64,000 bases of DNA from an uncultured Clostridia bacterium (GCA_964403285.1 CAYOFG010000002.1:21104-85103); one strand, 5' to 3'. Positions 1 to 44,600 are shown, numbered from the stretch's first letter. A program made the numbers and translations. The notes: generated by a model not told the origin, from the sequence alone.

Positions 1-365
1 CTATTAAAAGTAACCAAATCCTTGTACTGGGTCAGGTGACAAGGCCGGGGGCTTATCCGATGGAGGCGAACTTCACTGTCCTGGAAGCTATAGCCATAGC
101 AGGAAGTTATACGGAAAGCGCTGGCTTAAAGAGAGTTACTGTAACCCGACGGTCCCGGGAGAGAAGTCCCAAAGTGATAAAGGTAAATTTGAAGAAGGTT
201 ATAGCCAAAGGGGATAGAAATAGTGACGTTATCTTAGAACCAGGTGATATCGTTCATGTGCCAAAGAAAACATCGGCATGGACTATTTTCGACCGCTACT
301 TTATTGGGGGCGTATTACCAATAGTGGGTTTCGCTGTAATGATTGATACGATTACCAGAGATTGA
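1..365 (+). CDS. polysaccharide export protein, Wza-like (5'-truncated at window edge; C-terminal SLBB region)
   Basis: Reading frame is open from nt 3 with no stop. The 'ILVLGQVTRPGAYPME...ILEPGDIVHVPKK' pattern is typical of the soluble-ligand-binding beta-grasp repeats at the C-terminus of Wza/GumB exporters. It lies immediately upstream of the PCP and BY-kinase genes. Confidence 0.6.
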   Translation, partial: IKSNQILVLGQVTRPGAYPMEANFTVLEAIAIAGSYTESAGLKRVTVTRRSRERSPKVIKVNLKKVIAKGDRNSDVILEPGDIVHVPKKTSAWTIFDRYFIGGVLPIVGFAVMIDTITRD

Positions 366-415
366 AATTACTCGATTCCACATAAAGCTTGACACATTAG
401 AGAGGAACAAGAACA

Positions 416-1594
416 ATGGAAAATCTGGAAGAAAGAACTAGTAGCTTTCAGGAATTATTGCAGATTATATCTGCCAGAAGAGTCTTGATCATCGCGGGTT
501 TCCTGAGTGTTTTTGTAGTCACCACTATAGGAAGTTTTCGCATGGCGTCGGTCTATGAAATTTCTACTACGCTTATGGTAGAACCGGTAGAGGTATCTTA
601 TATTGAGAGTGGTTCCCTTTCTTACGGTGCCCGAGCAGCATTTATCGCTAATGAAAAAGAGATAATAAAGAGCCGAACTATTGCCGAAGAAGTTGTCAGA
701 CAACTTGGCTTACATGAGAGACTCGGTCCTCCATCTTTCCTTGGCATTCTACTTAACAAATTTTTTCAAACCAATCCCGGCCCTTTTGAAAAGACAGTTC
801 GTGGATTGCGGAAAAGCCTATTCGTGAGTTCAACCGGTGGCCCTAATATAATTGAGATTGGTTTAAATGACAAGGACCCCGTGGAGGGTGCTCGCATAGT
901 AAACACTGTGGCTCAGGTGTACATCGACTACAGATACCAGGCCTCGCTCATTAAGACTCGCGGCGCTTATAATTTCATTGCCGAGCAGGTCAAAATAGCC
1001 CAACAGAAACTCGGCAATTCTGACAGAGCCTTAAGAGAGTTCAAACAGAAAGAGAAAATGGCCGATTTACCATCGGAGACAGCTCATATTCTGGGTAGGC
1101 TATCAGCACTTGACGCTTCATTATCTGGCGAGTTGACTGAGTATTCTGAGAAGGACCCGCGAGTAGTACGTACTAAAGAAGAAATACGGAGACTCACTGC
1201 TAAACTTGAGAGTTTGCCACAAAAGGAACTGGAGCTGGCCCGGTTAGCCCGAGCGGTTAAGAGTAATGAAGAAATATATTTAATACTATTAAGAAAACTG
1301 GAAGACGCTCGCATCTCTGAAGTTGCTGAAATGCAAGGAATGGGAAGCGCAATGGTAATCGACCCCGCTGTCCCACCCCCTTATCCAATGAGGCGTAAAA
1401 GGGTAATGTTTATTCTCCTGGGAGGTATTATGAGTTTGGTATTCGGTATGGGAATGGCATTCTTTGCTGAATACAGGGATTCTTCTATGAGAACTTCTAA
1501 GGATATAGAAGAATCTTTGCACTCAAGAGTTCTGGGAATTATTCCTTCAACACCAAAAGAGATAAGAAAAACCTTTTTGGGTTTTAGACGCTAA
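416..1594 (+). CDS. polysaccharide co-polymerase / chain-length determinant protein (Wzz/Wzc N-terminal domain type)
   Basis: N-terminal TM helix (RVLIIAGFLSVFVVTTI). Long coiled-coil periplasmic region. C-terminal TM helix (VMFILLGGIMSLVFGMGMAFFAEY). Followed by a separately encoded BY-kinase-like ATPase, the split Wzc arrangement. Confidence 0.7.
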   Translation: MENLEERTSSFQELLQIISARRVLIIAGFLSVFVVTTIGSFRMASVYEISTTLMVEPVEVSYIESGSLSYGARAAFIANEKEIIKSRTIAEEVVRQLGLHERLGPPSFLGILLNKFFQTNPGPFEKTVRGLRKSLFVSSTGGPNIIEIGLNDKDPVEGARIVNTVAQVYIDYRYQASLIKTRGAYNFIAEQVKIAQQKLGNSDRALREFKQKEKMADLPSETAHILGRLSALDASLSGELTEYSEKDPRVVRTKEEIRRLTAKLESLPQKELELARLARAVKSNEEIYLILLRKLEDARISEVAEMQGMGSAMVIDPAVPPPYPMRRKRVMFILLGGIMSLVFGMGMAFFAEYRDSSMRTSKDIEESLHSRVLGIIPSTPKEIRKTFLGFRR

Positions 1595-1608
1595 AGGAGT
1601 AAATATAG

Positions 1609-2289
1609 ATGAATAAACGCATAAGGTATCACACATCATTAACTTTACCTGATGAGAAATCTCCCACCGGGGAATCTTACAGGGCTTTACGAACAAACAT
1701 TTTACGAACCACCCAGGATAAGTTGATGAAGGCAATTTTAATTACCAGTTCCAACCATTATGAGGGTAAGACTACCACGGCCATTAACTTAGCCTTAGCT
1801 ATGTCCGATGTTCCCGGGTATAAAACACTTTTAATCGATTCGGATTTGCGATTTCCAACTGTGCATGATAGATTAGGCCTGATGCAAAGTCCGGGGCTAA
1901 CCGAAATTCTGGAGGGAAGTGTAGGATTGGATTCAGAGATAATCGACACGGAAAAGGAAAATCTCAAAGTAATAACATCCGGGAATTTACCACACTATCC
2001 AGTAGAATTACTCGAATCAAAAAGATTAATGAACCTTATAACAGAGCTAAAATCACATTTTGACCTGATTCTCGTAGACTCTCCCCCGCTTATTCCATAT
2101 AGCGATGCAAGTGTGTTGAGTTCCCAGGTGGATGGAGTTTTACTTGTGGTCCAATCGGGTAGGACCCGCCGGGAGGATATCCAACAAGTGCACGCCACCT
2201 TACAGGATAATCAAGCTAAAGTATTAGGTATAGTGTTAAATAGGCAAAAACATTTTGTCCCTGATAGAATATATAAACGCCGGTTTTAG
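1609..2289 (+). CDS. BY-kinase-like P-loop ATPase (CpsD/CapB family, MinD/ParA fold)
   Basis: Walker A-like SNHYEGKTTT, Walker A' LLIDSDLRFP, Walker B LILVDSPP. The canonical PGEGKS glycine is replaced by Ser-x4-GKT, and the C-terminus (…DRIYKRRF) lacks a tyrosine cluster. Confidence 0.7.
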   Translation: MNKRIRYHTSLTLPDEKSPTGESYRALRTNILRTTQDKLMKAILITSSNHYEGKTTTAINLALAMSDVPGYKTLLIDSDLRFPTVHDRLGLMQSPGLTEILEGSVGLDSEIIDTEKENLKVITSGNLPHYPVELLESKRLMNLITELKSHFDLILVDSPPLIPYSDASVLSSQVDGVLLVVQSGRTRREDIQQVHATLQDNQAKVLGIVLNRQKHFVPDRIYKRRF

Positions 2290-2402: not shown

Positions 2403-5400
2403 ATGGTCAATCAAATGAGAAGGGTGGGGCGGTTTGGTATTTTATCTCTCTTCTTTGTTTTGGTATTTACAAATTCTGTCTGGGCAATATGGGTAGACGC
2501 CGATGGTTCAGGGAAGGAATCAATAAACATCTCCACTAATACTGGGAATTCTGAGTATCCTTCTCTTTATTTAGATAGTTCGAGGAATCCCCACATTGCC
2601 TGGTTTGATTCTACTGAAGTAGACGAGGAGATTTATTTTCTTAAATGGAATGGCACGGAATGGGTGGATGCTGATGGTTCAGGAAAGACATCCATAAACA
2701 TATCAAAGACTGTCGGAAGTTCTTATCAGCCTTCCCTTTGTTTGGATGGTTCGGGGAAGCCCCACATTGCCTGGAAAAATTATACCCCAGGAAACTATTA
2801 TGAGATCTATTATCTTAAATGGAATGGCTCAGAATGGGTAGATGCCGATGGCTGGGGTCAGGGCTCAATAAACATCTCCAATACCAGCACCGATTCTTTT
2901 CATGCTTCTCTTTGTTTAGACAGTTTGGGGAAGCCGCATATTGCCTGGTTTGAAGCTATTTCAGGGAATAGTGAGATTTATTATCTCCAGTGGAGTGGCA
3001 CATCTTGGGTAGATGCTGATGGTTCAGGAAAGGAAGGAATAAACATCTCCAATAATCCCGGGGATTCTAAAGACCCTGTTCTTTATTTAGATAGTTCAGG
3101 TAAACCTCACATTGCCTGGCATGACGATACTTCGGGAAATGAGGAGATTTATTATCTTAAATGGAATGGCTCAGAATGGGTGGATGCTGATGGTTCAGGA
3201 CAGGGAGAGATAAATGTATCAAAGAGACCCGGGGATTCCGGGTATGCCTCTCTTTGTTTAGATAGTTTGGATAATCCTCACATTGCCTGGTATGATTATG
3301 CTTCAGGAAAGAATGAGATTTACTATCTTAAATGGAATGGCATAGCCTGGGTAGATGCTGATGGTTCAGGACAGGGAGAGATAAATGTCTCCAATACTAC
3401 TGGGATTTCTAATTATCCTTCTCTTTATTTAGATGTTTCGGATAATCCTCACATTGCCTGGCACAATTCTTCCGGACTAAATGACATTTATTATCTTAAA
3501 TGGAATGGCATAGCCTGGGTAGATGCTGATGGTTCGGGAAAGGGAGAGATAAATATCTCAGCTAATGATGGGGATTCTAGCTATCCTTCCCTCTATTTAG
3601 ACGCTTCGGGAAATCCACATATTGCCTGGAAAGACAATACTTCAGGAAACTATGATATTTATTATCTCAAATGGAACGATGGACCTGTATTATCCTGGAC
3701 AGGAGAAACAAATTATAGTAACGATGGTTTACATCCTCAAACGGGCTATCGCGATACTGATTTTATTTACAGGGTAAAGTATATGGACGTGAATAACGAC
3801 GGACCAAAATCAGGTTATCCTAAGTTACATATTATGAAAGGCGGGTCAGAAATAGGCGTGTTTACCATGGACGAAGTAGATCCAGGAGATACGACTTATA
3901 GCAATGGGAAACTTTATACTTACACCAAAAGTGGATTAGTTGCATTAGGCGATGATTATACTTATTACTTTGAGGCAAAAGACATTTGGAATACTCCAGC
4001 AACTGGTGCACCAACTAGTTCTCAAGATGGTCCGGACGTTATAAACCGTGCTCCTACACTATCCTGGACGGAAGAAACGAATTATGCTTCTGATGGATTG
4101 GATCCCGAAGTTGGCCCTCGCGAGACGAGTTTTGTTTACAAGGTAAAATATACAGATGAGGACAACGACCTCCCGGCAGCAGGTTATCCTAAATTACATA
4201 TTAAGAAGGGTGGAACACCAATATCTGGAAGTCCATTTCCCATGAGTCCAGTAGATCTAGGAGATAATAATTACGCTGATGGGAAACTTTATGCTTACAC
4301 TAAAATCGGATTGGAACCGGGAACGGACTATACTTATTACTTTGAGGCAAATGACGTTTGGAACATTCCCGCAACAGGCGACCCCACCAATCCTGTTGAT
4401 GGGCCCGACGTCGCAAACATTCTTCCCACACTATCCTGGACAGGAGAAACGAATTATGCCTCTGACGGCTTGGACCCCGAAATTGGCCCTCGCGGGACTA
4501 GTTTTGTTTATAGAGTAAAGTATACAGACGAGGAGAACGACGCTCCGGCATCAGGTTATCCTGAGTTACATATTAGGAAGGGTGGGTTGGAGATAAGCGG
4601 AAGTCCGTTTACTATGGACGAGGTAAATTCAGGAGATAAGAATTACAATGATGGGAAACTCTATACCTACACCAAAAGTGGACTAACACCCGGAGAAAAT
4701 TACACTTATTACTTTGAGGCAAAAGACTTATGGGATGGTGTAGCAACAGGCGACCCAACGAATCCTGTTGACGCCCCGGACGTTACAAACATTGCTCCCA
4801 CATTATCCTGGACAGGAGAAACGAATTACACGAGTGATGGCTTGAATCCTGAAACCGGTTATCCTGATACTAATTTCACTTACCGGGTAATTTATGCAGA
4901 CACCGATAATGATGCTCCGGCATCAGGATATCCTAAATTACATATCAAGAAGGCCGGGAAAGAGATAAGCGGGAGTCCGTTTGCTATGAGCGAAGTAAAT
5001 GCAGGAGATAAAGATTACACTGATGGCAAGGTCTATGCCTCCGCCAAGAGTGGACTGGCACCAGGAGAGGATTATACTTATTACTTTGAAGCAAAAGACT
5101 TATGGGATGGTGCAGCAACGGGAGATCCAACCAATCCTCTTGCTGGACCTGACGTGGGAAACCTTGCTCCCACATTATCTTGGACGGGAGAGACAAATTA
5201 TACTGAGGATGGCTTGGACCCTGAAGTTGGCTCTCACTATACTGATTTCATTTACAGGGTAAAGTATGCGGACCCGAACAATGACGTTCCCGCATCAGGT
5301 TATCCCAGGTTGCATATCAAAAAGGGCGGGATAGAGATAGAAGGAAGCCCATTTACTATGCGCGAGGTAAATACGGGAGATAAGAATTACAGGGACGGCA

Positions 5401-5837
5401 AACTTTATACCTATACAAAGGGTAGATTACCAATGGGGATGGATTATACTTATCACTTCCAGGCAAAAGACTGCTGGAACAGTGTGGCAACAGGCGATCC
5501 GACCAGCGCCATTGATGCCCCGGACGTCCTTATCGGGTTCTCGGCAATAGGCGAAGTAAAGATTCAGGGAGGGGAAAACGGTTATGTTAATCCCCTGAAA
5601 GGCGAGGAAGCAGAGATCCATTTCTGGCCGAGCACTCAGGGAACAGTAAATGTTGAGATTTTTGATTTGATAGGACTGCTTGTCTGGGAAAAAAGTAAAG
5701 CTGTAACAGGAGCTCAAGATTCCATTAAATGGGATTGCAGAAACAATGAGAATGGTCTGGTGGCTTCGGGAATTTATGTTGTCTTTGTGAAAGGTCCGGG
5801 AATAAATGCTACCAAAAAAGTTGCAGTTATGAAATAA
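2403..5837 (+). CDS. large secreted repeat protein: signal peptide, 7 x ~55-aa repeats, 5 x ~120-aa repeats, C-terminal FlgD-Ig/T9SS-like sorting domain
   Basis: RBS aaaaggagg lies 7 nt upstream of the ATG. N-terminal signal peptide FGILSLFFVLVFTNSVWA. Repeat A motif: WVDADGSG..INIS..PSL.LD..G.PHIAW....EIYYLKWNG. Repeat B motif: PTLSWTGETNY.SDGLDPE...FVYRVKYTDEDND.P..GYPKLHIKKGG...YTYYFEAKD.W. C-terminus ...IKWDCRNNENGLVASGIYVVFVKG....KKVAVMK resembles the C-terminal domains of the beta-helix proteins downstream. Confidence 0.8.
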   Translation: MVNQMRRVGRFGILSLFFVLVFTNSVWAIWVDADGSGKESINISTNTGNSEYPSLYLDSSRNPHIAWFDSTEVDEEIYFLKWNGTEWVDADGSGKTSINISKTVGSSYQPSLCLDGSGKPHIAWKNYTPGNYYEIYYLKWNGSEWVDADGWGQGSINISNTSTDSFHASLCLDSLGKPHIAWFEAISGNSEIYYLQWSGTSWVDADGSGKEGINISNNPGDSKDPVLYLDSSGKPHIAWHDDTSGNEEIYYLKWNGSEWVDADGSGQGEINVSKRPGDSGYASLCLDSLDNPHIAWYDYASGKNEIYYLKWNGIAWVDADGSGQGEINVSNTTGISNYPSLYLDVSDNPHIAWHNSSGLNDIYYLKWNGIAWVDADGSGKGEINISANDGDSSYPSLYLDASGNPHIAWKDNTSGNYDIYYLKWNDGPVLSWTGETNYSNDGLHPQTGYRDTDFIYRVKYMDVNNDGPKSGYPKLHIMKGGSEIGVFTMDEVDPGDTTYSNGKLYTYTKSGLVALGDDYTYYFEAKDIWNTPATGAPTSSQDGPDVINRAPTLSWTEETNYASDGLDPEVGPRETSFVYKVKYTDEDNDLPAAGYPKLHIKKGGTPISGSPFPMSPVDLGDNNYADGKLYAYTKIGLEPGTDYTYYFEANDVWNIPATGDPTNPVDGPDVANILPTLSWTGETNYASDGLDPEIGPRGTSFVYRVKYTDEENDAPASGYPELHIRKGGLEISGSPFTMDEVNSGDKNYNDGKLYTYTKSGLTPGENYTYYFEAKDLWDGVATGDPTNPVDAPDVTNIAPTLSWTGETNYTSDGLNPETGYPDTNFTYRVIYADTDNDAPASGYPKLHIKKAGKEISGSPFAMSEVNAGDKDYTDGKVYASAKSGLAPGEDYTYYFEAKDLWDGAATGDPTNPLAGPDVGNLAPTLSWTGETNYTEDGLDPEVGSHYTDFIYRVKYADPNNDVPASGYPRLHIKKGGIEIEGSPFTMREVNTGDKNYRDGKLYTYTKGRLPMGMDYTYHFQAKDCWNSVATGDPTSAIDAPDVLIGFSAIGEVKIQGGENGYVNPLKGEEAEIHFWPSTQGTVNVEIFDLIGLLVWEKSKAVTGAQDSIKWDCRNNENGLVASGIYVVFVKGPGINATKKVAVMK

Positions 5838-5850
5838 GAAGACTGTAGCT

Positions 5851-5894
5851 GCAGAGCGATAGCTCTGCCAAGGAAAGCAAAGCTTGCGCTTTGC
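5851..5894. terminator. two consecutive stem-loops (gcagagc-gata-gctctgc; gcaaagc-ttgc-gctttgc) after the large repeat-protein gene
   Basis: Perfect 7-bp stems directly after the stop codon. Related to the GCAGAGC hairpin at 39929-39946. The T-tract is weak, so this may be an RNA-stability or processing element rather than an intrinsic terminator. Confidence 0.4.
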
Positions 5895-5932
5895 GGCTAC
5901 AAAAAAAGATAATGGTCTTGAAGGAGGTAAAG

Positions 5933-6835
5933 GTGAAAAAAATTCTTATTCTTTCTATTTTTCTGGTTCTGGTTCTGGCAAATGGTTTATGGGCAAAAGG
6001 AGCAGGGACATCCAGCGCGATTGTGCTCCAGCAGCCGATAGGCGCAAGAGCCTCGGGGATGGCAGAGGCTTATACTGCGGTGGGGGGAGAAATATGTGTC
6101 CTCCATTATAATCCAGCGAGCTTGATTTCTCTTCCTGGTCGAGAGGCTGCCTTCAGCTATCAGCGAGGCCTAGCCGATGATAGTTTTATGAGTCTTCTTT
6201 ATGGCCAGCCAACTTCTGTGGGAGTCTTCGCAGGGGCTTTCTCCTACTACACAGCGGGAGACATTGACCTGATCGACCTTGACGGAAATGAGTGGACGGC
6301 AAAGGCAGAGCAGGATTTTGTAATACTGGCTGGCTTTGCCCGCAAGTTTGTGGAGAATTTACCGATGGGCATAAACCTGAAGATAGTCTCCTCAAGACTC
6401 GTAGAAGTCAAGACGGGTACGGCTTTTGCAATAGATCTGGGAGGACTTTACTACACACCAATAGAAGGTCTGGCGGGAGGATTGGCGATTCGAAATTTGG
6501 GGACAACGCTTAAATTCCTCGATGAAAGTGATTCTCTTCCTTTGACAATTTCCGTTGGGGCTGCTTTTCAGAAGCATTTTGGCAGCCAGAAAATTTTACT
6601 GAGCGCAGATTTCCCTTTTTTGGTTTATGAACAGAAAGTTACTCCAGCAGTTGGTTTTGAGTTTGACTGGCGAGAGATGGTTCAGGGAAGAATTGGTTAT
6701 AAATTCAACATTGATGATACTGGACTTGCTCTGGGTATGGGATTCTCGTATCAGAGCTATTTCATTAACTATGCCTTTGGCCTGGCAGACAGGTTAGAAA
6801 ATGGACACCGGGTAAGTCTGGGCGTAAGATTTTAA
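5933..6835 (+). CDS. FadL-like outer-membrane beta-barrel protein (PorV / PorP-SprF / PorQ-like), partner of the upstream CTD protein
   Basis: GTG start at 5933 lies 5 nt after RBS aaggagg. Signal peptide KKILILSIFLVLVLANGLWA. N-terminal FadL-like motif GARASGMAEAYTAVGG...YNPASL. Ends in aromatic-rich beta-strands (…VSLGVRF). The 5891 ORF-track start would run through the upstream hairpins. Confidence 0.6.
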   Translation: MKKILILSIFLVLVLANGLWAKGAGTSSAIVLQQPIGARASGMAEAYTAVGGEICVLHYNPASLISLPGREAAFSYQRGLADDSFMSLLYGQPTSVGVFAGAFSYYTAGDIDLIDLDGNEWTAKAEQDFVILAGFARKFVENLPMGINLKIVSSRLVEVKTGTAFAIDLGGLYYTPIEGLAGGLAIRNLGTTLKFLDESDSLPLTISVGAAFQKHFGSQKILLSADFPFLVYEQKVTPAVGFEFDWREMVQGRIGYKFNIDDTGLALGMGFSYQSYFINYAFGLADRLENGHRVSLGVRF

Positions 6836-6849
6836 AATTAGGGGAAAAA

Positions 6850-8340
6850 TTGTATCTTTATGACTCTGGGATAAGTGACCGTTATAGAATTGGCTGGCCA
6901 GTGATTGTTATTCTGGGAGGAATAATCTGCGGATTTTTTATATTGTTCCTCACCCTACTTCCAGCCAGGTGGGGAGTGCTTGGCGCCATAGGAATAATGG
7001 TTCCCTTTATTGCCCTAATGACAGGAAATGAGAAGCGTTTCTTTTTGGCAATATTGGTGTTCGCTTTACCAATACAACTGGATATAACTATTGGATATAC
7101 GGGACATCTCGGGGGAGCAGCCGGATTCATAATATCGCTGTATGATATCACCCTTGCTATTCTATACATATTCTGGATTAGTGAATTTGTAAGAAATAAG
7201 AAGAGAATTAACTTTTTCCCCAGAATAAGCCTACCTTTCTTTTTCCTGGTTGGCATGGCTACATTATCAATGGCCAATGCTTCCTTCCCAAAATTGAGCT
7301 TGTTTGAGATAGTGCAAGTGCTCAAAATGTATCTGGGCTTCCTTTATATAGGAAATAATATCAAAAGCAGGAAAGAAATTCAATTTGTGATTGTTTTTTT
7401 GCTTTTAGGCCTTTTTTTAGAAAGTCTGCTTGGTCTTGCCCAATATAAGTTTGACCGCCCTCTTGTTCCCAGTGTATTGGGCGGGCCGGAAAAGGTGGGA
7501 TACATAAGACTTGGTGAGCCAATGTCCAGGATTTCGGGTACATGGGTATCTTACAATGATTTTGCCTGGTATCTCACATTTATGCTGCCTATCTCTCTGA
7601 GTCTACTCTTCTCCAGAATAAGGGGAAGCTATAAGATAATGTGTGGTTTAATATTAGTTGCCGGGATTGGTGCTCTGATATGCACTCTCTCCCGGGCAGG
7701 ATGGTATAGTTTTGTAGTAGCTGCTCTAATAGTATTATTATTGAATTTTTCAAAAACCAAAGGAAAAACAGGACTGAATAATTTTGCCACATCGATTGTC
7801 GCCATTCTAATTGTTATCTCCGTTATATTCACTGTGAACCCTCAATTCTTAAATATCGTCAATCGTCGAGTTGTTAGTGACGATTACGACGCTGCATATT
7901 CCCGCATCCCTCAAATGCAAGTAGCTTCGAACATAATAAGGGCTAATCCTCTCTTGGGTATAGGGATTAATAATTACACAGAAGTTATGGATCAGTATGA
8001 TACGACGGACGTTAAACTTACATCCATAACCCGACAGCAGGTGCACAATATATTCCTGCAAGTCGCGGCAGAAATGGGCGTCGCCGGCCTTGCCATTTTC
8101 ATCTGGCTCATATTTATGGTTTATAAAGAGGGCTTGAGTTACATTAGGTTCAGTGAAGATTCAATGTCAAACGTAGTTGTAGGTCTTATTGGGGGAATCA
8201 CGGCTTTTTTGATCCACGGCCTGGTAGATGCAGCATCTTTGGGAAACCATCTATTTCTTATATTCTGGTTTTTCACTGGCATGGTTATTGTAATAAAGAA
8301 AATTACATTGCAGGCAAAACCTTCTGTTGTGGGAGCTTAA
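6850..8340 (+). CDS. O-antigen polymerase/ligase family membrane protein (Wzy-like)
   Basis: At least 10 predicted TM helices. Large loop containing LSRAGWY, similar to the Wzy_C/O-antigen ligase signature. Positioned between the outer-membrane barrel and the flippase. The TTG start is uncertain. Confidence 0.55.
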   Translation: MYLYDSGISDRYRIGWPVIVILGGIICGFFILFLTLLPARWGVLGAIGIMVPFIALMTGNEKRFFLAILVFALPIQLDITIGYTGHLGGAAGFIISLYDITLAILYIFWISEFVRNKKRINFFPRISLPFFFLVGMATLSMANASFPKLSLFEIVQVLKMYLGFLYIGNNIKSRKEIQFVIVFLLLGLFLESLLGLAQYKFDRPLVPSVLGGPEKVGYIRLGEPMSRISGTWVSYNDFAWYLTFMLPISLSLLFSRIRGSYKIMCGLILVAGIGALICTLSRAGWYSFVVAALIVLLLNFSKTKGKTGLNNFATSIVAILIVISVIFTVNPQFLNIVNRRVVSDDYDAAYSRIPQMQVASNIIRANPLLGIGINNYTEVMDQYDTTDVKLTSITRQQVHNIFLQVAAEMGVAGLAIFIWLIFMVYKEGLSYIRFSEDSMSNVVVGLIGGITAFLIHGLVDAASLGNHLFLIFWFFTGMVIVIKKITLQAKPSVVGA

Positions 8341-8344
8341 GTGA

Positions 8345-9829
8345 ATGAACACAGTTAAGAGATTAGTCAAAAATACAGGGTTTGTACTATTGGCACAGGC
8401 TGCAGAACCGGTATGCTCCTTTATATTGGTATTATTCATTGCTCGTTCCTTAGATGTCTCTGGTCTGGGTAAGTTTTCTATTGCCATCTCTCTTTTCTTC
8501 ATTTTTCAGACTATCTCTTCTCTGGGTTTTTCCCACCTGATTACGAGAGAAGTTTCCCGCGACATATCAAAAGCAGGCAAATACTTAATTAACGCCTCTG
8601 TTGTGGGATTTCTCTTCTCAGTTCTGACAGCGGGAGCGATGTGTCTGGCAGGTTATCTATTGAATTATTCGGCAGATACTGCTTTAGCCATTTATATTCT
8701 CAGTCTTGCCTTGATACCTATAGTATTTTCTCTGGTTTGTCATTCTATATGTAGAGCTTTTGAAAGACTGGAATATGTTAGTATTCCGTTTATAACAGGC
8801 AATTTATTCAAAGTCGCGATTGGTTTGCTCATCTTATTTAAGGGCTATGGTTTAGTGGAATTAATGTTAGTAATCCTGGGGAGCTATCTTTTAGACTCGC
8901 TTATCAGTTTATACTTTGTTCTCAAGTGCACGGGAAGACTACTTTTCAAAATAGATTTTGGTTTTTGCAAATGGATTGTCAAAACCACTCCCACTTTTGC
9001 TCTTATTTTTATCTTTGCCACTCTTTATTGGAACGTGGATATCATTATGCTATCCAAAATTAAGGGGGCAACAGAAGTCGGTTTCTATAGCGCCGCTTAC
9101 AAATTAATGAATGTGTGGAAGATAATTCCCCTGGGTTACCTTATGGCATTACAACCCGTTATCTCCAGATTGTTTGAGTCTTCTTTAGAAAAATTTAGGA
9201 TAGCCTGCATCAACTCGATTAGATACCTATTTATGGTAATGTTGCCCATTGCTGTGGGAACTACACTCTTGAGCGACAATTTTATAGTTCTTTTCTTTAA
9301 GGAACGCTTTTTAGCTTCGGCAAATTCTTTGTCCATTCTCATCTGGACATTGGTTCCCTATACTATAAATATGACAATTGCTCATGCCTTGATTGCCAGT
9401 AATAATCAAAAGGTAAACTTACGCTCACTCCTTATTAGTATGATGTGCAATGTTACCTTGAATTTCTTATTAATACCGAGATTCAGTTACTCGGGCGCAG
9501 CTATGACAACCTTGATTTCAATCTGTATATTCCTGGGTTTACAATATGGATTTGTCTCTAAGAATCTATTTACACTCAACTTCTTTCATATTGCTGGAAA
9601 ACCGATTATTTCCGCAGCTTTGATGGGAATAACTATTTTGTTACTTAGACAGCTCAACCTGTTTCTTATAGTGCTCATTGCCACATTAGCTTACGTCTTG
9701 TTCTTATTAACACTCAGGCCATTCTCGGCAACCGACGTACAGCTTTTCCGGAGACTGTGGGAAAGAGATAAGGGATTGATTATATTACAAACTCAGAAAT
9801 CATCTGAGCACAATCCTTCAAAAGAATAA
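8345..9829 (+). CDS. wzx: polysaccharide flippase (Wzx/RfbX, MOP superfamily)
   Basis: N-terminal 'LVKNTGFVLLAQAAEPVCSFILVLFIARSL..GLGKFS' is typical of Wzx. About 14 TM helices throughout. Confidence 0.75.
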   Translation: MNTVKRLVKNTGFVLLAQAAEPVCSFILVLFIARSLDVSGLGKFSIAISLFFIFQTISSLGFSHLITREVSRDISKAGKYLINASVVGFLFSVLTAGAMCLAGYLLNYSADTALAIYILSLALIPIVFSLVCHSICRAFERLEYVSIPFITGNLFKVAIGLLILFKGYGLVELMLVILGSYLLDSLISLYFVLKCTGRLLFKIDFGFCKWIVKTTPTFALIFIFATLYWNVDIIMLSKIKGATEVGFYSAAYKLMNVWKIIPLGYLMALQPVISRLFESSLEKFRIACINSIRYLFMVMLPIAVGTTLLSDNFIVLFFKERFLASANSLSILIWTLVPYTINMTIAHALIASNNQKVNLRSLLISMMCNVTLNFLLIPRFSYSGAAMTTLISICIFLGLQYGFVSKNLFTLNFFHIAGKPIISAALMGITILLLRQLNLFLIVLIATLAYVLFLLTLRPFSATDVQLFRRLWERDKGLIILQTQKSSEHNPSKE

Positions 9830-10980: not shown

Positions 10981-12357
10981 TTGCAGTCTAAAAAATTTAG
11001 AAAAGCATTATATAGTCTTTTTTTATCTTTTGTAGTCGTAGTATTGGCATTTGCCGGTGTCTATTTAGTAAGCATTTGCAGCATAAATCACGCGTATTAT
11101 CAGGCGTACAATACTAAAGATGTGGTTGCTTTACGTAAGTTTCCTTATCCTTACAAAGCTGCAATGACGATTTGTAGCGATATTGATGGAACTACAAGTA
11201 AAGAAGAATTCTTAGAAATTCAAAAATTTCTCAACACCAAAGAAGAAACCAGTATGGGAGAAGGGGTGGGATTAGAAATCGGTAATAGTTTTGTGATGTA
11301 TGCACCACCGACCTGCGCATTTTCGTACTTCTCGGGAAATCCAGAGAACGCTCAAATTATTAGGAAATATATTAATTCCGGGTATATAGATTTTATGCAC
11401 TCTTACGGAGAAAAAACAGATTTTACTCGAAAAGATGCGATAGAAGCAATAAAAGAATTAAATGATAATCAGTGCAAAGTTGATGTATGGGTTGACCACG
11501 CCACAACTGTAGACAACTTAGGTGATGATTTGACGTTTGGTTTAGGTGATCATTCTGACTCAAGTGCCTACCATTCTGACATTACATTAGCATATGGTAT
11601 AAAATTTGTCTGGCTGGGCAGAGTTACCACGGTTATTGGTCAGTCCGTACCTATAACCTTGAAGACATTTTCCTCAGTTTACGATTCTCGTCACCCTGTT
11701 GATTCTTTGAAAAATATGGTGAAAGAATTTGCCAAGAATGTCCTGGCTGTCTTTGGAAATAAGAAATACGCTATGCACAAGAGTTATAACCTTCTGAGAA
11801 TAGCAAAACTAAACGATGGTCAAAAAGTCTATGAATTCTTAAGGTTTGATAACTATTGGAAAGGAGTTGCAGAAGGCGCTACTTCTAAGCGCTTGGCGTA
11901 CGTAATTTCCAAACGGACTCTGGAGAGGTTAAAGAAAGTCGGTGGTTATATGATTGTTTATACCCACTTAGGGAAAAATTCTGATTGCCCAGAGGTAGTT
12001 GCAAAAGAAACACAAAATGCACTGCGGGATTTGGCGAGCGAATACGAAAGGGGAAATATTTATGTTACCACCACTTCCCGGCTGTTGAATTATTTTATTA
12101 ATCAGAAATATTTAAAATGGTCGTATGAGACTAAAGGTGAGGAAATGATTATTACCATCTTCAGCGTAGAAGATCCAGTTTTTGGCTCTTTCGTTCCGAC
12201 CATTAAAGATTTGCAGGGAATCACCTTTTATGTTCCCGCTAAGGATAAAATCCGGATTTATATAAATGATAGGGAGATAACAGACATTCGCAGGAACCCG
12301 CCCGATTTTATGGAAAGAGAAAGTGTAACAATTTGGAAAAGGGAGGAAAAGGCATGA
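10981..12357 (+). CDS. hypothetical membrane-anchored protein
   Basis: Single N-terminal TM helix (LYSLFLSFVVVVLAFAGVYLV) followed by a large soluble domain with no motif I recognise. Coding-like composition, tight spacing in the operon. Confidence 0.45.
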   Translation: MQSKKFRKALYSLFLSFVVVVLAFAGVYLVSICSINHAYYQAYNTKDVVALRKFPYPYKAAMTICSDIDGTTSKEEFLEIQKFLNTKEETSMGEGVGLEIGNSFVMYAPPTCAFSYFSGNPENAQIIRKYINSGYIDFMHSYGEKTDFTRKDAIEAIKELNDNQCKVDVWVDHATTVDNLGDDLTFGLGDHSDSSAYHSDITLAYGIKFVWLGRVTTVIGQSVPITLKTFSSVYDSRHPVDSLKNMVKEFAKNVLAVFGNKKYAMHKSYNLLRIAKLNDGQKVYEFLRFDNYWKGVAEGATSKRLAYVISKRTLERLKKVGGYMIVYTHLGKNSDCPEVVAKETQNALRDLASEYERGNIYVTTTSRLLNYFINQKYLKWSYETKGEEMIITIFSVEDPVFGSFVPTIKDLQGITFYVPAKDKIRIYINDREITDIRRNPPDFMERESVTIWKREEKA

Positions 12358-28147: not shown

Positions 28148-28279
28148 AATTCGGTACTGGGATTATGGCGTCAGAATATCCCGCCTTTAAACCCTCCTTT
28201 CAAAATTAACAAAATTTTGGAGTCCTCCCGAAAGGGAGGTTGAAAAAACAAACCCTTGTTTTCGCAAGGAGGTATGGAA

Positions 28280-29812
28280 ATGAGTGTTTCTAAAAATTTC
28301 TTCAAGTATTGCTTAGTATTTTCTTTAGTCCTGATAATTCCATTATGTATTCCAACTTTGGCGCAAGCAACCATCTATTATGTAGCACAAGATGGCAGCG
28401 ATAGTAATCCTGGAACGGAAACAGAGCCTTGGGCAAGTGTTGATAAAGCGGCAGATACAATGAAAGCTGGCGATACCGTTTATGTTAAACAAGGAACTTA
28501 TAGCGGATTTCAGGTATCCAGAAGCGGAACTGCTGGCAATTACATATCATATCTTGCCTACCCAGGAGCTACTCCAAAAATTGGGCAGATTTATTTTGGA
28601 GAAGGAGCAAGTTATAATAAATTTCACGGGTTTGAAATCACGTATCCCTCCGGAGGAGGGGTGCAAATGAACAATAATAATGACCATAACATGATATCAA
28701 ATTGCCACATTCATCATTGTAACCCAAGTGGAAGTTGTGGAGTGGATATAAGTGGTGGCAGTGATTTTAACATAATAGAAGATTGTATTATTCATGACGT
28801 CTACTATGCTGCTCACACGAGCGGAAGCACCAACAGAGGAAATGTCTTTCGCAGAAACATATGTTACAATATTTCTGATGATGGTTTTAATTTCTCTCCT
28901 TCTACCAAAGATACTCAGGTCATTGATAATGTTATTTATGACGTAGACTGGGATGGAAGTGGGGGAGCAGATGGTATCCACCTTTTCGAAGATGGGAGTG
29001 CAATTGTAAGGGGAAATTTAGTTTATCATGACCGTGCCGCGAGGGGCGGTGTCTTTTGGATTAACGGTGGAAGCAATCACATTATTGAAAATAACACGTT
29101 TGTCGGTCTTCCTGGTTTTACCACTGATTATGGCGGAATAATCTGGATTGAGGTAAATTCGAATGTTACTCTCAAGAATAATATCGGTTACTCAAGTAAC
29201 GGCTCAATAGGTGTGGTTACGGGGATAAATTCTTCTACGAATGATGATTACAATGACTGGTACAATTCTGTTAATAAATCGATGTGCGTGCGATACGGAG
29301 GGGAATGGAAATCTGTTTCTGAATATCAGAAGGAAGATGGTAGAGGACTCCATTCTATTTCCCTGAACCCAGAATTTGTAAATCCTGTAAGTGGTGAAAG
29401 TGGCGATTTTCACTTAAAGCCCGGGTCTCCTTGCGAAGGTACTGGCGAGAATGGGGCAGATATGGGAGCTTACGGCGTGGCAATACCTGACTCCAGTAAA
29501 GACGAGGGAAAGGCGGAGATCAAAGTCCTCAATCGCCCCAATCCCTTTCGTGCCGGCAAGGAAGCGACTCTAATACAATATGAACTCAGTCAACCTTCCA
29601 ATGTTATAATTACAATTTACAACCTCCTGGGTGAAGAAGTATGGCGTAAAAGTTATGAAGCGGGAGAAAACGGTGGCAGGGAAGATAACATCGTTCCCTG
29701 GGATGGAAAGAACGCCTCGGGAGAAGTGGTAGGAAATGGAGGCTATGTCTGCCGCATCTGGGTGGAAAAAGAAAATAGGTATGTGGTAAGGAAGATTGCT
29801 GTTGCCAAATAG
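28280..29812 (+). CDS. secreted right-handed parallel beta-helix protein (DUF1565/pectate-lyase-like fold) with C-terminal FlgD-Ig/T9SS-like sorting domain
   Basis: ATG at 28280 lies 7 nt after RBS aaggagg. Signal peptide MSVSKNFFKYCLVFSLVLIIPLCIPTLAQA. DUF1565-type start TIYYVAQDGSDSNPGTETEPW..ADTMKAGDTVYVKQGTY. Repeated N/H-rich beta-helix rungs. C-terminal NRPNPFRAGKEATLIQYEL…ITIYNLLGEEVW…WDGKNASGEVVGNGGYVCRIWV…RKIAVAK. Confidence 0.75.
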   Translation: MSVSKNFFKYCLVFSLVLIIPLCIPTLAQATIYYVAQDGSDSNPGTETEPWASVDKAADTMKAGDTVYVKQGTYSGFQVSRSGTAGNYISYLAYPGATPKIGQIYFGEGASYNKFHGFEITYPSGGGVQMNNNNDHNMISNCHIHHCNPSGSCGVDISGGSDFNIIEDCIIHDVYYAAHTSGSTNRGNVFRRNICYNISDDGFNFSPSTKDTQVIDNVIYDVDWDGSGGADGIHLFEDGSAIVRGNLVYHDRAARGGVFWINGGSNHIIENNTFVGLPGFTTDYGGIIWIEVNSNVTLKNNIGYSSNGSIGVVTGINSSTNDDYNDWYNSVNKSMCVRYGGEWKSVSEYQKEDGRGLHSISLNPEFVNPVSGESGDFHLKPGSPCEGTGENGADMGAYGVAIPDSSKDEGKAEIKVLNRPNPFRAGKEATLIQYELSQPSNVIITIYNLLGEEVWRKSYEAGENGGREDNIVPWDGKNASGEVVGNGGYVCRIWVEKENRYVVRKIAVAK

Positions 29813-31649
29813 AAAGCAGGCGAAGGTGGGAGAAAAGAGAGTTTTTAAAATATTCTGTATCTGGTTGTTAATTTTTGGGTTGCAGTGGCAATTTGTCAGG
29901 GTAGATAATTACTGCGGGATGCCCGATGACTATTTGCAATACGCGGTAAACGAAGTAGTAGTAACCGGCAGTGTCTATTATGTAGAAAAAGGTGGCAGTA
30001 ACAGTTGGGACGGTTCTCTTGAGCATCCCTGGCAGACCATTCAAAAAGCCGCCGATACTATGGTTGCTGGGGATACTGTCTACATTAAGGAAGGAGTTTA
30101 TACTGAAAGAGTCGTGGCTCAACAATCAGGCTCTCCTGAAAAATTTGTAACCTACATGGCATATCCCGGACATAAATCAGTTATAGACGCAGGCGGAACT
30201 GGAACGGCATTCAGTATCGTCGGGAAAAGTTACATAAAGATAGATAGTCTCGAGATAAAAAACGCTGGAGGCTGGGGAATACTTGTGGAAGATTCTACGA
30301 ACATTGAAATAAGAAATGTAAAAGTTTCTTACAGTAATTGGGAAAACATACAAATCAGAGGTGATTCCAGTCAGGTTCTTCTGGAAAACTGTGACGTCAG
30401 TCATAGCCAAAATTATTCTGGCATAGATATATATCAATATAATGGCCGTCCGCATCATGTGACAGTAAGGAACTGTACTGCCCATCATAATGAGCAATTT
30501 GCTGGCATAGGCAGTGAACAAGCAGATAATTTAATAATTGATTCAAATGTCTGTTATAACAATCGACTGGGTGTAGATATCGGAAGCGGAGACAAGAACA
30601 TTATTAGAAACAATACTGTTTACGACTGCGAAACTGGCATTGCTTTAAGCTCCAATGAAGATTCTGAGGTTTATGAAAATACTATTTACAATATTAAAAA
30701 TGAAGCAATTTATAGTTATTGCTTCAGTGTACACGGCGAAGCCCATACCAGAAATAAATGGTATAGAAATATAGTCTATAACTGTGGTTTTGGAATTTAC
30801 GAAAGCAAATGGGATAGGCAGCCAATTGAGGGGATTTCGTCAGACCATGAATTCTATAACAACCTTTTCTATGATATAGGAACCCACGGTACTTATCGCG
30901 TACCATTTTATTTCCAAGGTTCAACAGGCATTAAATTTCGTGACAACACTATCTATATGAATCCAAACTATGATGCAGTCCAATTCCTTCAAGGCGCCAT
31001 TAATTCAAAAATCGAAAATAACATTATAAGCATAAGTGGGGATAAATCTCCAATCATAATGGATAGTTCATCCAGTAGTGGTGCAGTAGTTGATTATAAC
31101 TGTTACCACAATAGGGCTGGTACTGTAGGTTCGGGGGAACATTCGATTGCTAAAGACCCAAAATTTGTTGATGTCCCGGGTCACGATTTCCATCTCCAAA
31201 AGACCTCCCCCTGCGTAGATGTTGGTGATCCTGCTACCGGTGCTGATTTCGACCTTGATGGTAGGCAGAGTCCCCAAGATGGTGATGGAGACGGAGACCC
31301 AATAGTTGATATGGGAGCTTATGAGTATCCAGGACCCAGTCCCCCTATCGAGGGAGTAGAAGTCCTCAATCGACCTAATCCGTTCCGTGCGGGTAAAGAA
31401 GAAACTCAGATAGAATATAATCTCAAGCAACTTTCCAATGTAACAATTACAATTTACGACCTCTTGGGTCAACAGGTCTGGCGTAAAAGTTATAGGGCAG
31501 GGGAAAACGGTGGCAGGGAAGTGAATAGCGTTCCCTGGGATGGGAAGAACGCCTCGGGAGAAGTGGTAGGAAATGGAAGCTATGTCTGCCGCATCTGGGT
31601 GGAAAAAGAAAATAGGTATGTGGTAAGGAAGATTGCTGTTGCTAAATAG
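29802..31649 (+). CDS. secreted beta-helix protein with same C-terminal sorting domain; N-terminal signal peptide and first mature residues homologous to the FadL-like barrel genes
   Basis: Probable TTG start at 29802, 7 nt after an aaggaag RBS embedded in the last codons of the upstream gene. Signal peptide NRKQAKVGEKRVFKIFCIWLLIFGLQWQFVRV, then DNYCGMPDDYLQY matching the barrel N-termini. Beta-helix core, a DGDGDGD calcium-like loop, then the sorting domain. Exact start codon is uncertain (29796/29802/29826). Confidence 0.65.
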   Translation: MPNRKQAKVGEKRVFKIFCIWLLIFGLQWQFVRVDNYCGMPDDYLQYAVNEVVVTGSVYYVEKGGSNSWDGSLEHPWQTIQKAADTMVAGDTVYIKEGVYTERVVAQQSGSPEKFVTYMAYPGHKSVIDAGGTGTAFSIVGKSYIKIDSLEIKNAGGWGILVEDSTNIEIRNVKVSYSNWENIQIRGDSSQVLLENCDVSHSQNYSGIDIYQYNGRPHHVTVRNCTAHHNEQFAGIGSEQADNLIIDSNVCYNNRLGVDIGSGDKNIIRNNTVYDCETGIALSSNEDSEVYENTIYNIKNEAIYSYCFSVHGEAHTRNKWYRNIVYNCGFGIYESKWDRQPIEGISSDHEFYNNLFYDIGTHGTYRVPFYFQGSTGIKFRDNTIYMNPNYDAVQFLQGAINSKIENNIISISGDKSPIIMDSSSSSGAVVDYNCYHNRAGTVGSGEHSIAKDPKFVDVPGHDFHLQKTSPCVDVGDPATGADFDLDGRQSPQDGDGDGDPIVDMGAYEYPGPSPPIEGVEVLNRPNPFRAGKEETQIEYNLKQLSNVTITIYDLLGQQVWRKSYRAGENGGREVNSVPWDGKNASGEVVGNGSYVCRIWVEKENRYVVRKIAVAK

Positions 31650-32928
31650 AAAGCAGGGGAAGGTGAGAGAAAAAACGGTTTTTGGAATATTTATTATTTG
31701 TTTATTAATTCTTGGGCTGAATTGGCAATTTGTTACAGCAGAGAATTACTACGGAATGCCTAACGACTATTTGCAGTACGGGGCAGGAGCGAGGTCTTTA
31801 GCCATGGGAGGAGCGTATGTAGCCCTGGCAGATGAGGCAAGTGGACCTTATTGGAATCCTGCAGGCTTAACACAGGTTGAGGAATACCAGTTCCTTTCTA
31901 TGTATGCTCCCTTCTTTGAACAGACTAGTTATAACTTCCTTTCTTATGTTAATCCACTGGGACGGCTGGGGAACGTGGCTATTTCCGATGTTTTTCTCTA
32001 TTCGGGAGGGTATGAAGAAGTTGATAAAGACGGAAACGTTCTGGGCGCGAATCAGTCAATATTCAATAATGCCATAATTATTTCTTATGCAAACAGAATT
32101 TATAGACACTTGTCCCTGGGAGCAAATTTGAAACTGATTCATGAGCGAGTGATGAAATATTCAGGGAACAGCCAGGGAATAGATTTGGGGATACTTTGTA
32201 AGCCTTTGGATGAACTGAGTATTGGCTTAGTAGTGCAAAATGTACTCCAGCCAAAGGTGACTCTGATAGATGAGCCTAACGTGTATGGTACAAATGTGAA
32301 AGGTGGTGTGGCATTGAAAACATACTATAACCGCCTAATACTGACCGCAGATATCAATAAGCTCGTTGACGAGAAAGCATATTTCTGTACAGGAGTAGAG
32401 TTTTCTCCCTGGGAGAAGGTTACGTCCTCTTCTTTGAAAAGAATAGATCTAAGGGCAGGAATCAACCATTTGCAATCATTTACCTGTGGAATAGGATTAA
32501 AGATAAATTTTTTCTCTCTGGATTACGCATTTAATATTCATAGGATAGGAAATCTCCACAAATTTGGCCTTACTTTTCGCTGGGGAAGTATCTATAAAGC
32601 GAGAGCCAGACCTGTTCTGGGGTCAGGAAACACTTATTGGGTTGGACCATCGGGGGAGCCCCTGAAATTTCTTATCGAAATGCCATCAATTACTATAGAA
32701 AAATGGACTCTGACGATAAAAGATGAAAAGGAGAAAATTGTGACGGCCTTCGAAACGACGAGGCATAGACCGAAAATTATCAGGTGGAATCTACGTGACC
32801 AGAAAGGAAAGTTGGTAAAGAACGGATATTATTACTACGAATTTAGCGTTATTTATAAAGATGGTAAAAAATGGATTGACAATGGAGAGATAAAGCTCCA
32901 GTATAAAGAAACATTGCCAAATCAATAA
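31639..32928 (+). CDS. FadL-like outer-membrane beta-barrel (PorV/PorP-SprF-like) with additional C-terminal FlgD-Ig-like domain
   Basis: TTG start lies 7 nt after an aaggaag RBS inside the upstream CTD codons. Signal peptide ending VTA|EN. YGMPNDYLQYGAGARSLAMGGAYVALADEASGPYWNPAGLT. Barrel ends in FGLTFRWGS. An extra ~100 aa (…IEKWTLTIKDEKEKIVTAF…IIRWNLRDQKGKLVKNGYYYYEFSVIY…) has an FlgD-Ig-like motif pattern. Confidence 0.6.
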   Translation: MLNRKQGKVREKTVFGIFIICLLILGLNWQFVTAENYYGMPNDYLQYGAGARSLAMGGAYVALADEASGPYWNPAGLTQVEEYQFLSMYAPFFEQTSYNFLSYVNPLGRLGNVAISDVFLYSGGYEEVDKDGNVLGANQSIFNNAIIISYANRIYRHLSLGANLKLIHERVMKYSGNSQGIDLGILCKPLDELSIGLVVQNVLQPKVTLIDEPNVYGTNVKGGVALKTYYNRLILTADINKLVDEKAYFCTGVEFSPWEKVTSSSLKRIDLRAGINHLQSFTCGIGLKINFFSLDYAFNIHRIGNLHKFGLTFRWGSIYKARARPVLGSGNTYWVGPSGEPLKFLIEMPSITIEKWTLTIKDEKEKIVTAFETTRHRPKIIRWNLRDQKGKLVKNGYYYYEFSVIYKDGKKWIDNGEIKLQYKETLPNQ

Positions 32929-33016: not shown

Positions 33017-33252
33017 TCATTGTGTTATACTTAGATTGTAGTAATCATAAGCTGTTCTGAAAACTGAATATTTTATGGCTCGATAAAGGCAAACCATTCG
33101 AAAGGGTGGGACGTAAAACCGCGGGTCCCCGATATATCAGGGACAGCCGGGTTACCGAAGCCAGCAAAGTAATAGATCCCTGGTTTTTCGAATGGAAAGC
33201 CAGGGTTTTCTATTTTATTAGCCATAAACGACTCTTCAAGGAAGGTAGTGCT

Positions 33253-44382: not shown

Positions 44383-44383
44383 T

Positions 44384-44600
44384 GTGGGCTTCGGCAAACG
44401 CATCGTCGCTTCGCTCCTCGCCCTCACTTCGTTCGGGTCATATAACACGGGCTATACGGTTCACTTCGTTCGCTCAAATCGGCTATCGCCGACTTCGTAT
44501 AGCCCGAGAACGTTAACCGACTGTCGCAAAAGTAAGGCTTTTGCGACACGGGGAACGGCGAGGAGAGAAGGGCAGTGACGAGGATGTGAAAGAGGGGTTT
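44384..44600. repeat. GC-rich dispersed repeat copy
   Basis: cgcttcgctc and cacttcgttcgc x2; ctcaaatcggc is comparable to 63170-63560. Sharp GC jump directly after the AT-rich gene. Confidence 0.5.

Follow-up and report, generated by a model that had tools for sequence, protein, structure and literature searches.

Closest described systems

Several described systems share parts of their design with the protein considered here, a 1144-aa secreted repeat protein encoded at positions 2403..5837 of a 64,000-nucleotide stretch of DNA (CAYOFG010000002.1:21104-85103, assembly GCA_964403285.1), which was analysed as a whole and is called the window below. The PorZ protein of Porphyromonas gingivalis combines two seven-bladed propellers with an uncleaved C-terminal domain (CTD), is anchored by PorQ, and binds the anionic polysaccharide of anionic lipopolysaccharide (A-LPS) (PMC8545088, PMC12365241); PorU and PorV are the parallel case of a CTD protein with its barrel in Porphyromonas. 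Cargo proteins with a type IX secretion system (T9SS) CTD of type B have linked cognate PorP/SprF barrels, on which both secretion and surface anchoring depend and which occur as several pairs per genome (PMC12618676, PMC9143113); SprB-SprF of Flavobacterium johnsoniae and PG1035-PorP of P. gingivalis are examples. Fibrillar adhesins with a BNR_4-type head have also been described, the head being marked as a putative adhesive domain (cluster 16, Monzon et al. 2022; PMC9210967).

The protein joins these known kinds as a BNR_4-clan propeller, an Ig-like stalk and a probable T9SS-type cargo, and comparison with them revealed the following features: (i) as in the PorZ-PorQ system, a seven-bladed propeller is combined with a CTD that is probably of T9SS type, and here a gene of the PorV/PorQ family adjoins, inside a polysaccharide locus; (ii) unlike PorZ, the protein has one propeller, not two, with a five-module stalk inserted, and unlike PorZ-PorQ, the barrel gene stands in cis to its cargo, with three pairs of this kind in a single locus, and the host probably lies outside Bacteroidota; (iii) as in the type B pairs, the cargo gene adjoins an outer-membrane barrel gene, the pairing being read from the genes, but with a type-A-like CTD (TIGR04183) and with barrels of the PorV/PorQ instead of the PorP/SprF family; (iv) a barrel stands beside each cargo set, whereas a single PorV serves all type A CTDs of the model organisms; and (v) like the cluster 16 proteins, it has an N-terminal propeller overlapping BNR_4, a tandem Ig-like stalk and a cell-surface anchor, but its stalk lies outside the named stalk families, its anchor is a probable T9SS-type CTD, and its gene is located inside an exopolysaccharide (EPS) locus.

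We interpret the protein, with about even confidence, as a barrel-anchored, glycan-binding, PorZ/PorQ-like fibrillar surface protein that would be a fixed accessory of a Wzx/Wzy capsule or EPS locus and bind the polysaccharide of that locus. Two features go somewhat beyond the known kinds, namely type-A-like CTD genes with private co-varying PorV/PorQ barrels, found three times in one Wzx/Wzy locus, and a stalk domain forming a large family that has no name in Pfam or NCBIfam.

Domain architecture and integrity of the repeat array

The architecture of the protein can be written as AAAAAAA-BBBBB-C, i.e. a head, a tandem stalk and a surface anchor, as in fibrillar adhesin-like proteins. The features of the gene are listed by coordinates in the window, strand, content and basis.

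2403..5837, + strand: whole gene for the 1144-aa secreted repeat protein (signal peptide, propeller, 5 Ig-like modules, CTD); open reading frame (ORF) listing, frame open over 3.4 kb
2403..2483, + strand: Sec signal peptide, residues 1-27, MVNQMRRVGRFGILSLFFVLVFTNSVWA then IW; read from the sequence
2484..3680, + strand: closed seven-bladed beta-propeller head, residues 28-426, 7 x 57-aa units (A), with the N-terminal strand closing the last blade; BNR_4, AlphaFold2, Foldseek
3681..4049, + strand: stalk module B1, residues 427-549; unit delineation and alignment
4050..4421, + strand: stalk module B2, residues 550-673; unit delineation and alignment
4422..4793, + strand: stalk module B3, residues 674-797, the unit chosen for modelling; AlphaFold2, Foldseek
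4794..5165, + strand: stalk module B4, residues 798-921; unit delineation and alignment
5166..5546, + strand: stalk module B5, residues 922-1048; unit delineation and alignment
5547..5834, + strand: C-terminal sorting domain (CTD), residues 1049-1144, 96 aa, T9SS type-A-like / FlgD-Ig-like; TIGR04183, PF18962 and the other CTDs of the locus

Judged by eye and not by a predictor, the signal peptide has a basic n-region, a hydrophobic core and a cleavage-type site VWA/I; inspection of its sequence found no lipobox cysteine. Tandem Repeats Finder resolved the rest of the gene into two arrays, one with a 171-nt period x 6.9 copies (2489-3676, 74% matches) and one with a 372-nt period x 4.9 copies (3691-5505, 74% matches). 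ORF and repeat analysis thus confirmed what the initial annotation had described, a 1144-aa secreted protein with a signal peptide, seven short and five long repeats and a CTD; the copy numbers stand, while the units, given there as ~55 and ~120 aa, measure about 57 and 124 aa. Units of the same kind are 51-73% (57-aa unit) and 62-75% (124-aa unit) identical as protein. As DNA they are 70-83% identical with a mean of 74%, and the earlier figure of 75-85% was too high.

The metagenome-type source and the proneness of tandem repeats to mis-assembly suggest that the repeat count, or even the entire ORF, might be an assembly or annotation artefact. We assign this a negligible probability. Besides the modest DNA identity between units, the longest exact internal repeat in the gene is 44 nt and the frame is continuously open over its 3.4 kb; the layout is common to more than 20 independently assembled orthologues, one of which (P0008) has the identical 7+5 arrangement, and every unit best matches the same-position unit of the nearest orthologue. 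Mis-assembly is therefore very unlikely, given the divergence of the units, the shortness of the exact repeats and the recurrence of the layout in independent assemblies. An identical protein is also present in a public collection, on a 91.5-kb contig.

Seven-bladed propeller head

The whole protein scored 74.8 bits with Pfam BNR_4 (PF15892, sialidase clan), against a gathering cut-off of 27.3, in 6 stretches, and its orthologues scored 80-102 bits. The blade motif is IYYLKWNGxxWVDADGSGxxxINxS...SLxLD...PHIAW. The first strand is missing from unit 1, unit 7 is followed by an extra 'YDIYYLKWND', and the joined ends make a perfect unit; since both ends together rebuild one unit, the repeats form a closed propeller and not an open array. 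The AlphaFold2 model of the head, built on 36 homologues, has seven blades (7 x 3-4 strands; predicted local distance difference test score (pLDDT) 88.3, predicted template modelling score (pTM) 0.90). Together with the structural matches below, it bears out the beta-propeller periodicity noticed earlier in the short unit. Among 120 relatives, runs of the A unit always number 7, 14 or 21, so the blade count, fixed by the closed-propeller fold, does not expand or contract.

Searched with Foldseek against the PDB, the head model best matched the PL42 rhamnose-glucuronate lyase FoRham1, GH145 BT3686, the PL25/PL24 ulvan lyases, and the Photorhabdus PLL/PHL lectins (E 1e-11 to 1e-9, template modelling (TM) score 0.5-0.6, identity 10-15%). 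All these best structural neighbours cleave or bind sugars. Comparison of the full protein with PDB sequences gave chance fibronectin matches only.

The enzymes among these matches raise the possibility that the propeller is itself a lyase or hydrolase of the PL42/GH145/PL24/PL25 type, which would trim or release the polysaccharide of the locus while the Ig-like modules position it on the polymer. Glycanases are encoded in many EPS operons, and Pfam places PL42 and PL25 enzymes in BNR_4, FoRham1 and the PL25 lyases being members themselves. However, the identity to those enzymes and the TM scores are low, and the known enzymes have one asymmetric His/His/Tyr/Arg site, whereas conservation in the present head is purely seven-fold. 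Every invariant residue of the head recurs in all seven blades with strictly seven-fold periodicity (24 close and 36 total homologues), and no blade-specific conserved His, Arg or Tyr was found in either set. The residues that are at least 90% conserved among the 24 close homologues and yet confined to a single blade are just motif positions and the closing strand. The asymmetric catalytic set of PL42/GH145, PL24 and PL25 was accordingly not seen, in a test that is conservation-based, indirect and made without a structure-based alignment to these enzymes. We consider an enzymatic propeller quite unlikely. The seven-fold conservation without a blade-specific site favours a multivalent lectin-type head over a lyase, and judging from its sequence the propeller is probably a multivalent lectin. 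It shares the fold and BNR_4 membership with FoRham1/BT3686, PL24, PL25 and the PLL/PHL lectins, but, unlike the sugar-active enzymes, has near-identical blades and lacks the asymmetric set, and thus stands nearer to the lectins.

Ig-like stalk modules

The AlphaFold2 model of one 124-aa unit (B3; built on 83 units) is an all-beta sandwich with pLDDT 98.0 and pTM 0.91, and its Foldseek matches, after a xanthanase module (PDB 6FHJ/6FHN) described below, are generic Ig-like domains. The earlier suggestion that the long unit is an Ig-like module is therefore upheld. No Pfam or NCBIfam family matched the unit: among 83 single B units taken from many proteins, none was significant for any Pfam family (best E 0.005; at most 4 of the 83 units per family). 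Filamin PF00630 scored 26.1 on the whole protein against a cut-off of 26.9, from short matches to the GSPF motif. Filamin, PKD, fn3, Big_2 and Cadherin were all rejected as identities of the unit, being below cut-off for both the whole protein and the 83 units, and the motif of canonical DxDxDG calcium loops is absent from the protein. The initial annotation had placed neither repeat in a nameable family and had counted a match to a known one against its reading; a known family was found for the 57-aa unit only, while the 124-aa unit still has none.

When 1.84 billion cluster representatives were searched by profile, the B family was detected in 3,459 proteins at E <= 0.001 and in 1,974 at E <= 1e-10, with up to 50 copies in single giant proteins that have a similar CTD. 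The heads preceding the B units include Kelch, RCC1, peptidases C1 and S8, MAM and beta-helix domains, and a similar CTD usually comes next. Among the orthologues the B count is 1, 4, 5 or 6, whereas the head is constant at 7 blades. Since the copy number varies and the heads differ, the 124-aa unit fits a stalk or spacer.

The B units are up to 84% identical to the same-position units of the nearest orthologues and at most 75% identical to their neighbours in the same protein, and they are positionally orthologous with the units of P0008, P0002 and P0003. As the units are closest to their positional counterparts, the array is old, with occasional gain or loss and no rapid flux. Recent amplification or concerted evolution of the repeats was rejected on the same grounds. 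Of the ongoing expansion and contraction proposed earlier, there remains the variation in long-unit number; the short unit keeps to its multiples of seven, and the age of the array speaks against the rest.

In some orthologues (P0002, P0003, P0004, P0006 and P0025) the last B unit and the CTD are separated by an extra domain of ~100 aa that is absent here (for instance P0002 residues 1183-1287; L007 7535..11683). This domain resembles BACON_2 and HYDIN/VesB-like Ig domains.

Relation of the stalk module to GH9 xanthanases

The one solved member of the family of the 124-aa unit is the beta-sandwich module that precedes CBM84 in the Paenibacillus GH9 xanthanase PspXan9 (PDB 6FHJ/6FHN). Foldseek aligned the B3 model with 6FHJ at E 1.2e-6 and TM 0.73, with 28% identity and a root-mean-square deviation of 2.4 Å over 122 columns, the region of fold similarity being residues ~809-921. 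By sequence, the B profile matched residues 822-916 of 6FHJ in hmmsearch (E 4.8e-9) and found a B-like module in the xanthanases of P. xanthanilyticus and P. sepulcri (E 2.7e-14 to 2.7e-16). A protein-collection search with the 6FHJ fragment gave no match. This module corresponds to 'beta3' in the study of the Cohnella xanthanase CspXan9, in which deletion of the N-terminal beta2+beta3 lowered activity 17-fold (PMC11002231). For an enzymatic propeller, which we regard as quite unlikely, both the homology of the stalk module to a xanthanase module and this loss of activity in a related enzyme are supporting points. The xanthanase beta3, however, accompanies an enzyme as one or two accessory copies, whereas in the lectin-headed protein proposed here the modules form tandem arrays as a stalk.

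The identification of the 124-aa unit with the xanthan-binding CBM84 was also considered and rejected. CBM84 is the module common to these xanthanases and to xanthan lyases (PMC10881899). The P. xanthanilyticus xanthanase has the order CelD_N-GH9-...-[B-like 857-958]-[C-terminal 136 aa], and its last 136 aa are 41% identical to residues 799-931 of the adjacent PL8 xanthan lyase, from which the B-like module is absent. The module shared with the lyase is therefore the one after the B-like module.

Two observations on these enzymes may be added. Paenibacillus sepulcri (L002 2206..7842) encodes a 1878-aa GH9 enzyme with B-like modules at residues 212-303 and 1264-1358 flanking the catalytic domain and with four CBM6/CBM35 modules, which fits the beta2-beta3 duplication of the Cohnella xanthanase. 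In the 'PspCBM84' construct of Ni et al. 2023 (PMC10049358), the first primer encodes DGRVYT, which in our alignment falls in the middle of the B-like module and away from any module boundary, at about residue 876 of 6FHJ chain A, and the reverse primer ends ...ALGN, internal to the last module of the P. xanthanilyticus homologue (L001 3418..6702). From these positions, the construct may straddle two structural modules.

C-terminal domain and adjoining barrel

The gene is directly followed by a gene for an outer-membrane beta-barrel, and two further modules of CTD cargo and barrel, at the distant end of this locus, are located in the same window together with a priming transferase:

5891..6835, + strand: PorV/PorQ-family outer-membrane beta-barrel; NCBIfam NF033709 PorV_fam 145.1 bits, cut-off 90
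28256..32928, + strand: second cargo/barrel module, with beta-helix (pectate-lyase-like) CTD proteins at 28256..29812 and 29796..31649 and a barrel at 31633..32928; PorV_fam 118.5 bits
33106..35819, + strand: third cargo/barrel module, with a beta-helix CTD protein at 33106..34851 and a barrel at 34866..35819; PorV_fam 126.6 bits
26690..28147: WbaP/EPS-type priming transferase

The first barrel remains under the equivalog cut-offs of both subfamilies (PorV 69 vs 250, PorQ 86 vs 220), and its true start probably lies a few codons inside the ORF. The initial annotation had overlooked this gene, the main clue to the mode of display. Placement of the repeat gene between the BY-kinase and Wzy genes was correct in so far as Wzy comes after the barrel, which is the direct downstream neighbour.

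The CTD of the repeat protein is clearly homologous to those of the three beta-helix proteins, with 31-33% identity over 90 aa; among these three, one CTD scores 28.1 bits. Identity is 73% between barrels 2 and 3 and 71-84% between the CTDs of their cargoes, whereas the first barrel shares 26% with each of them. Thus, CTDs and barrels co-vary, since the similar barrels go with similar CTDs and the first pair is divergent in both. We propose the barrel at 5891..6835 as a putative cognate dock for the CTD. The three beta-helix proteins also bear on the enzymatic interpretation of the propeller, as they are better candidates for glycan processing than the lectin-like head.

Alternatively, the CTD could be a type A signal that is cleaved, with a PorU-like sortase linking the protein covalently to the locus polysaccharide, as in the A-LPS paradigm, and the barrels acting as shuttles and not as lasting anchors. 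The locus would then encode the anchor glycan together with its cargo. In Porphyromonas, type A CTD cargo is joined to A-LPS and anchoring of cargo fails in a wbaP mutant, and the present locus combines a WbaP/EPS-type priming transferase with four CTD proteins. We nevertheless regard this scheme as decidedly improbable: (i) no PorU-like sortase was found in the window, where the PorU model matched proteins through their CTD region only; (ii) three private co-varying barrels for four cargoes suit dedicated partners rather than one general shuttle, whereas the type A CTDs of Flavobacterium all use a single PorV; and (iii) the export genes of the locus are of the Wza/Wzc type and do not indicate the lipopolysaccharide ligase route. 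An uncleaved CTD that keeps the protein docked on its barrel remains the arrangement that we prefer.

Position in the polysaccharide locus

The repeat gene and its barrel are located inside the export and polymerase core of the locus:

36..2289, + strand: upstream export genes, a Wza-type SLBB fragment (36..365), a Wzz/GNVR co-polymerase (416..1594) and a BY-kinase-type ATPase (1609..2289); Pfam
6850..9829, + strand: downstream genes, a Wzy_C polymerase/ligase-type protein (6850..8340) and a Wzx-type flippase (8345..9829); Pfam

Counts in a promoter and terminator scan were not above those of shuffled sequence, and the scan gives no information on operon structure. The order Wza - Wzz/GNVR - BY-kinase - orthologue - 300-aa gene is kept in four other metagenome contigs (L004-L007), with orthologues 60-74% identical to the protein. 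Three of the contigs (L004, L005 and L007) continue with Wzy - flippase - glycosyltransferase, while L006 ends one gene past the 300-aa gene. The latter has a weak Pfam match to PorV in L004 and L007 and no recorded Pfam match in L005 and L006.

This conserved position bears on a further interpretation, in which the protein adheres generally to external targets, such as other cells, particles or foreign glycans, and is encoded in an EPS locus for biofilm co-regulation only. With its head, stalk and anchor the protein is laid out like a fibrillar adhesin (PMC9210967), this head and stalk recur in many genomic settings that lack EPS genes, and GGDEF proteins are encoded upstream of two of the orthologous loci. 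Retention of the position inside the export/polymerase core at this level of orthologue identity is, however, tighter than co-regulation needs, and the PorZ precedent is one of binding the cell's own polysaccharide. A general adhesin therefore seems unlikely to us; if it were one, the protein would be an ordinary large repeat adhesin. From the architecture, the barrel neighbour and the synteny, the protein is probably, as had been suggested before, a surface adhesin or polysaccharide-binding protein tied to the glycan locus.

Proposed role

In the mechanism that we propose for a barrel-anchored, glycan-binding protein, the CTD would direct the protein, after Sec export, across or onto the outer membrane, where it would stay docked on the barrel encoded next door, in the way PorZ stays on PorQ and PorU on PorV. 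An Ig-like domain spans ~4 nm. The five modules, at ~4 nm each, would thus add up to a rod roughly 20 nm long, which keeps the propeller clear of the membrane. The propeller would then act as a multivalent lectin with repeated sites, binding the locus polysaccharide or another glycan, and could tether, organise or hand on the glycan.

Several observations weigh against this interpretation. In the head, the best BNR_4 stretch covers model positions about 212-266 of 272, which is one blade, in this protein and in two orthologues, and a regular-expression search found no canonical Asp-box [ST]xDxGxx[WFY] (canonical SxDxGxTW) anywhere in the protein, the blades having the motif given above instead. 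The CTD scores 23.2 bits with TIGR04183 (T9SS type A sorting domain), against a cut-off of 23, and is below the cut-off of PF18962 (19.1 vs 27 bits). An NCBIfam scan at E <= 1 gave no match of the protein to PorZ (NF052228), and PorZ is therefore an analogy and not a homologue. The window, the 64 kb of this genome that were available, contains no identified component of the T9SS core (SprA/Sov, PorK/L/M/N or the PorU sortase), and distant relatives with the same domains, in Elusimicrobia-type genomes, have no PorV-like neighbour. Finally, the host, an uncultivated lineage, is probably not a member of Bacteroidota, judging from ribosomal protein S1 encoded in the window: it is 80-98% identical to metagenome sequences only, its next-nearest matches are at most 55% identical, and the few matches named to phylum level include Marinimicrobia as well as Eisenbacteria and Myxococcales, the latter two with listed identities of about 44-45%.

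A wider proposal, which we put forward tentatively and with some doubt, is that in this non-Bacteroidota lineage type-A-like CTD proteins each have a private co-evolving PorV/PorQ barrel as a permanent anchor, so that the pairing with cognate barrels described for type B CTDs and PorP/SprF would apply to type A as well; the propeller protein would be a PorZ-like polysaccharide handler, and the locus would couple capsule or EPS assembly to protein display. Such display could take place without a full T9SS.

If these interpretations are true, (i) a large stalk-domain family absent from Pfam and NCBIfam obtains a name and a fold; (ii) this B family, which surface proteins of Elusimicrobia-type and further uncultivated bacteria commonly contain, becomes linked to the xanthanase module; (iii) type-A-like tails pair with private PorV/PorQ barrels in a polysaccharide locus, and models of type IX secretion extend past Bacteroidota; and (iv) the protein becomes a candidate tether or organiser of capsule or EPS, components of a kind that is poorly known outside model organisms.

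Other features of the window and related loci

Next to the distant Elusimicrobia relative P0028 (GCA_028718185.1), which has B units and a CTD, the following gene encodes no PorV-like barrel but a protein of 570 aa (L008 8688..10400) with matches to CsgG, LpoB and, faintly, Toluene_X (FadL-like); by these domains, the protein may be a different outer-membrane partner. The GGDEF (diguanylate cyclase) genes mentioned above are located just upstream of the orthologous loci at L006 196..2133 and L007 2606..3529, which hints at control of the locus by cyclic di-GMP.

Between a glycosyltransferase and an asparagine-synthase-like gene, the window contains a 458-aa ORF (10981..12357) that has no Pfam or NCBIfam match and is conserved in position in two of the related contigs (L005 12031..13395 and L007 16900..18276). 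On the opposite strand, 48011..50875 (-) encodes an unusual fusion, a 953-aa protein in which TolB-like propeller repeats (TIGR02800 171 bits, below cut-off) precede an Omp85-family barrel region at the C-terminus; a HExxH match of the flagellinolysin-like kind is also present, but weak. Gene orientation flips from + to - at ~44000..46300, and cumulative GC skew peaks at ~44 kb, positive to the left and negative to the right; this switch could be a replication-terminus-like convergence or a simple coding-strand bias.

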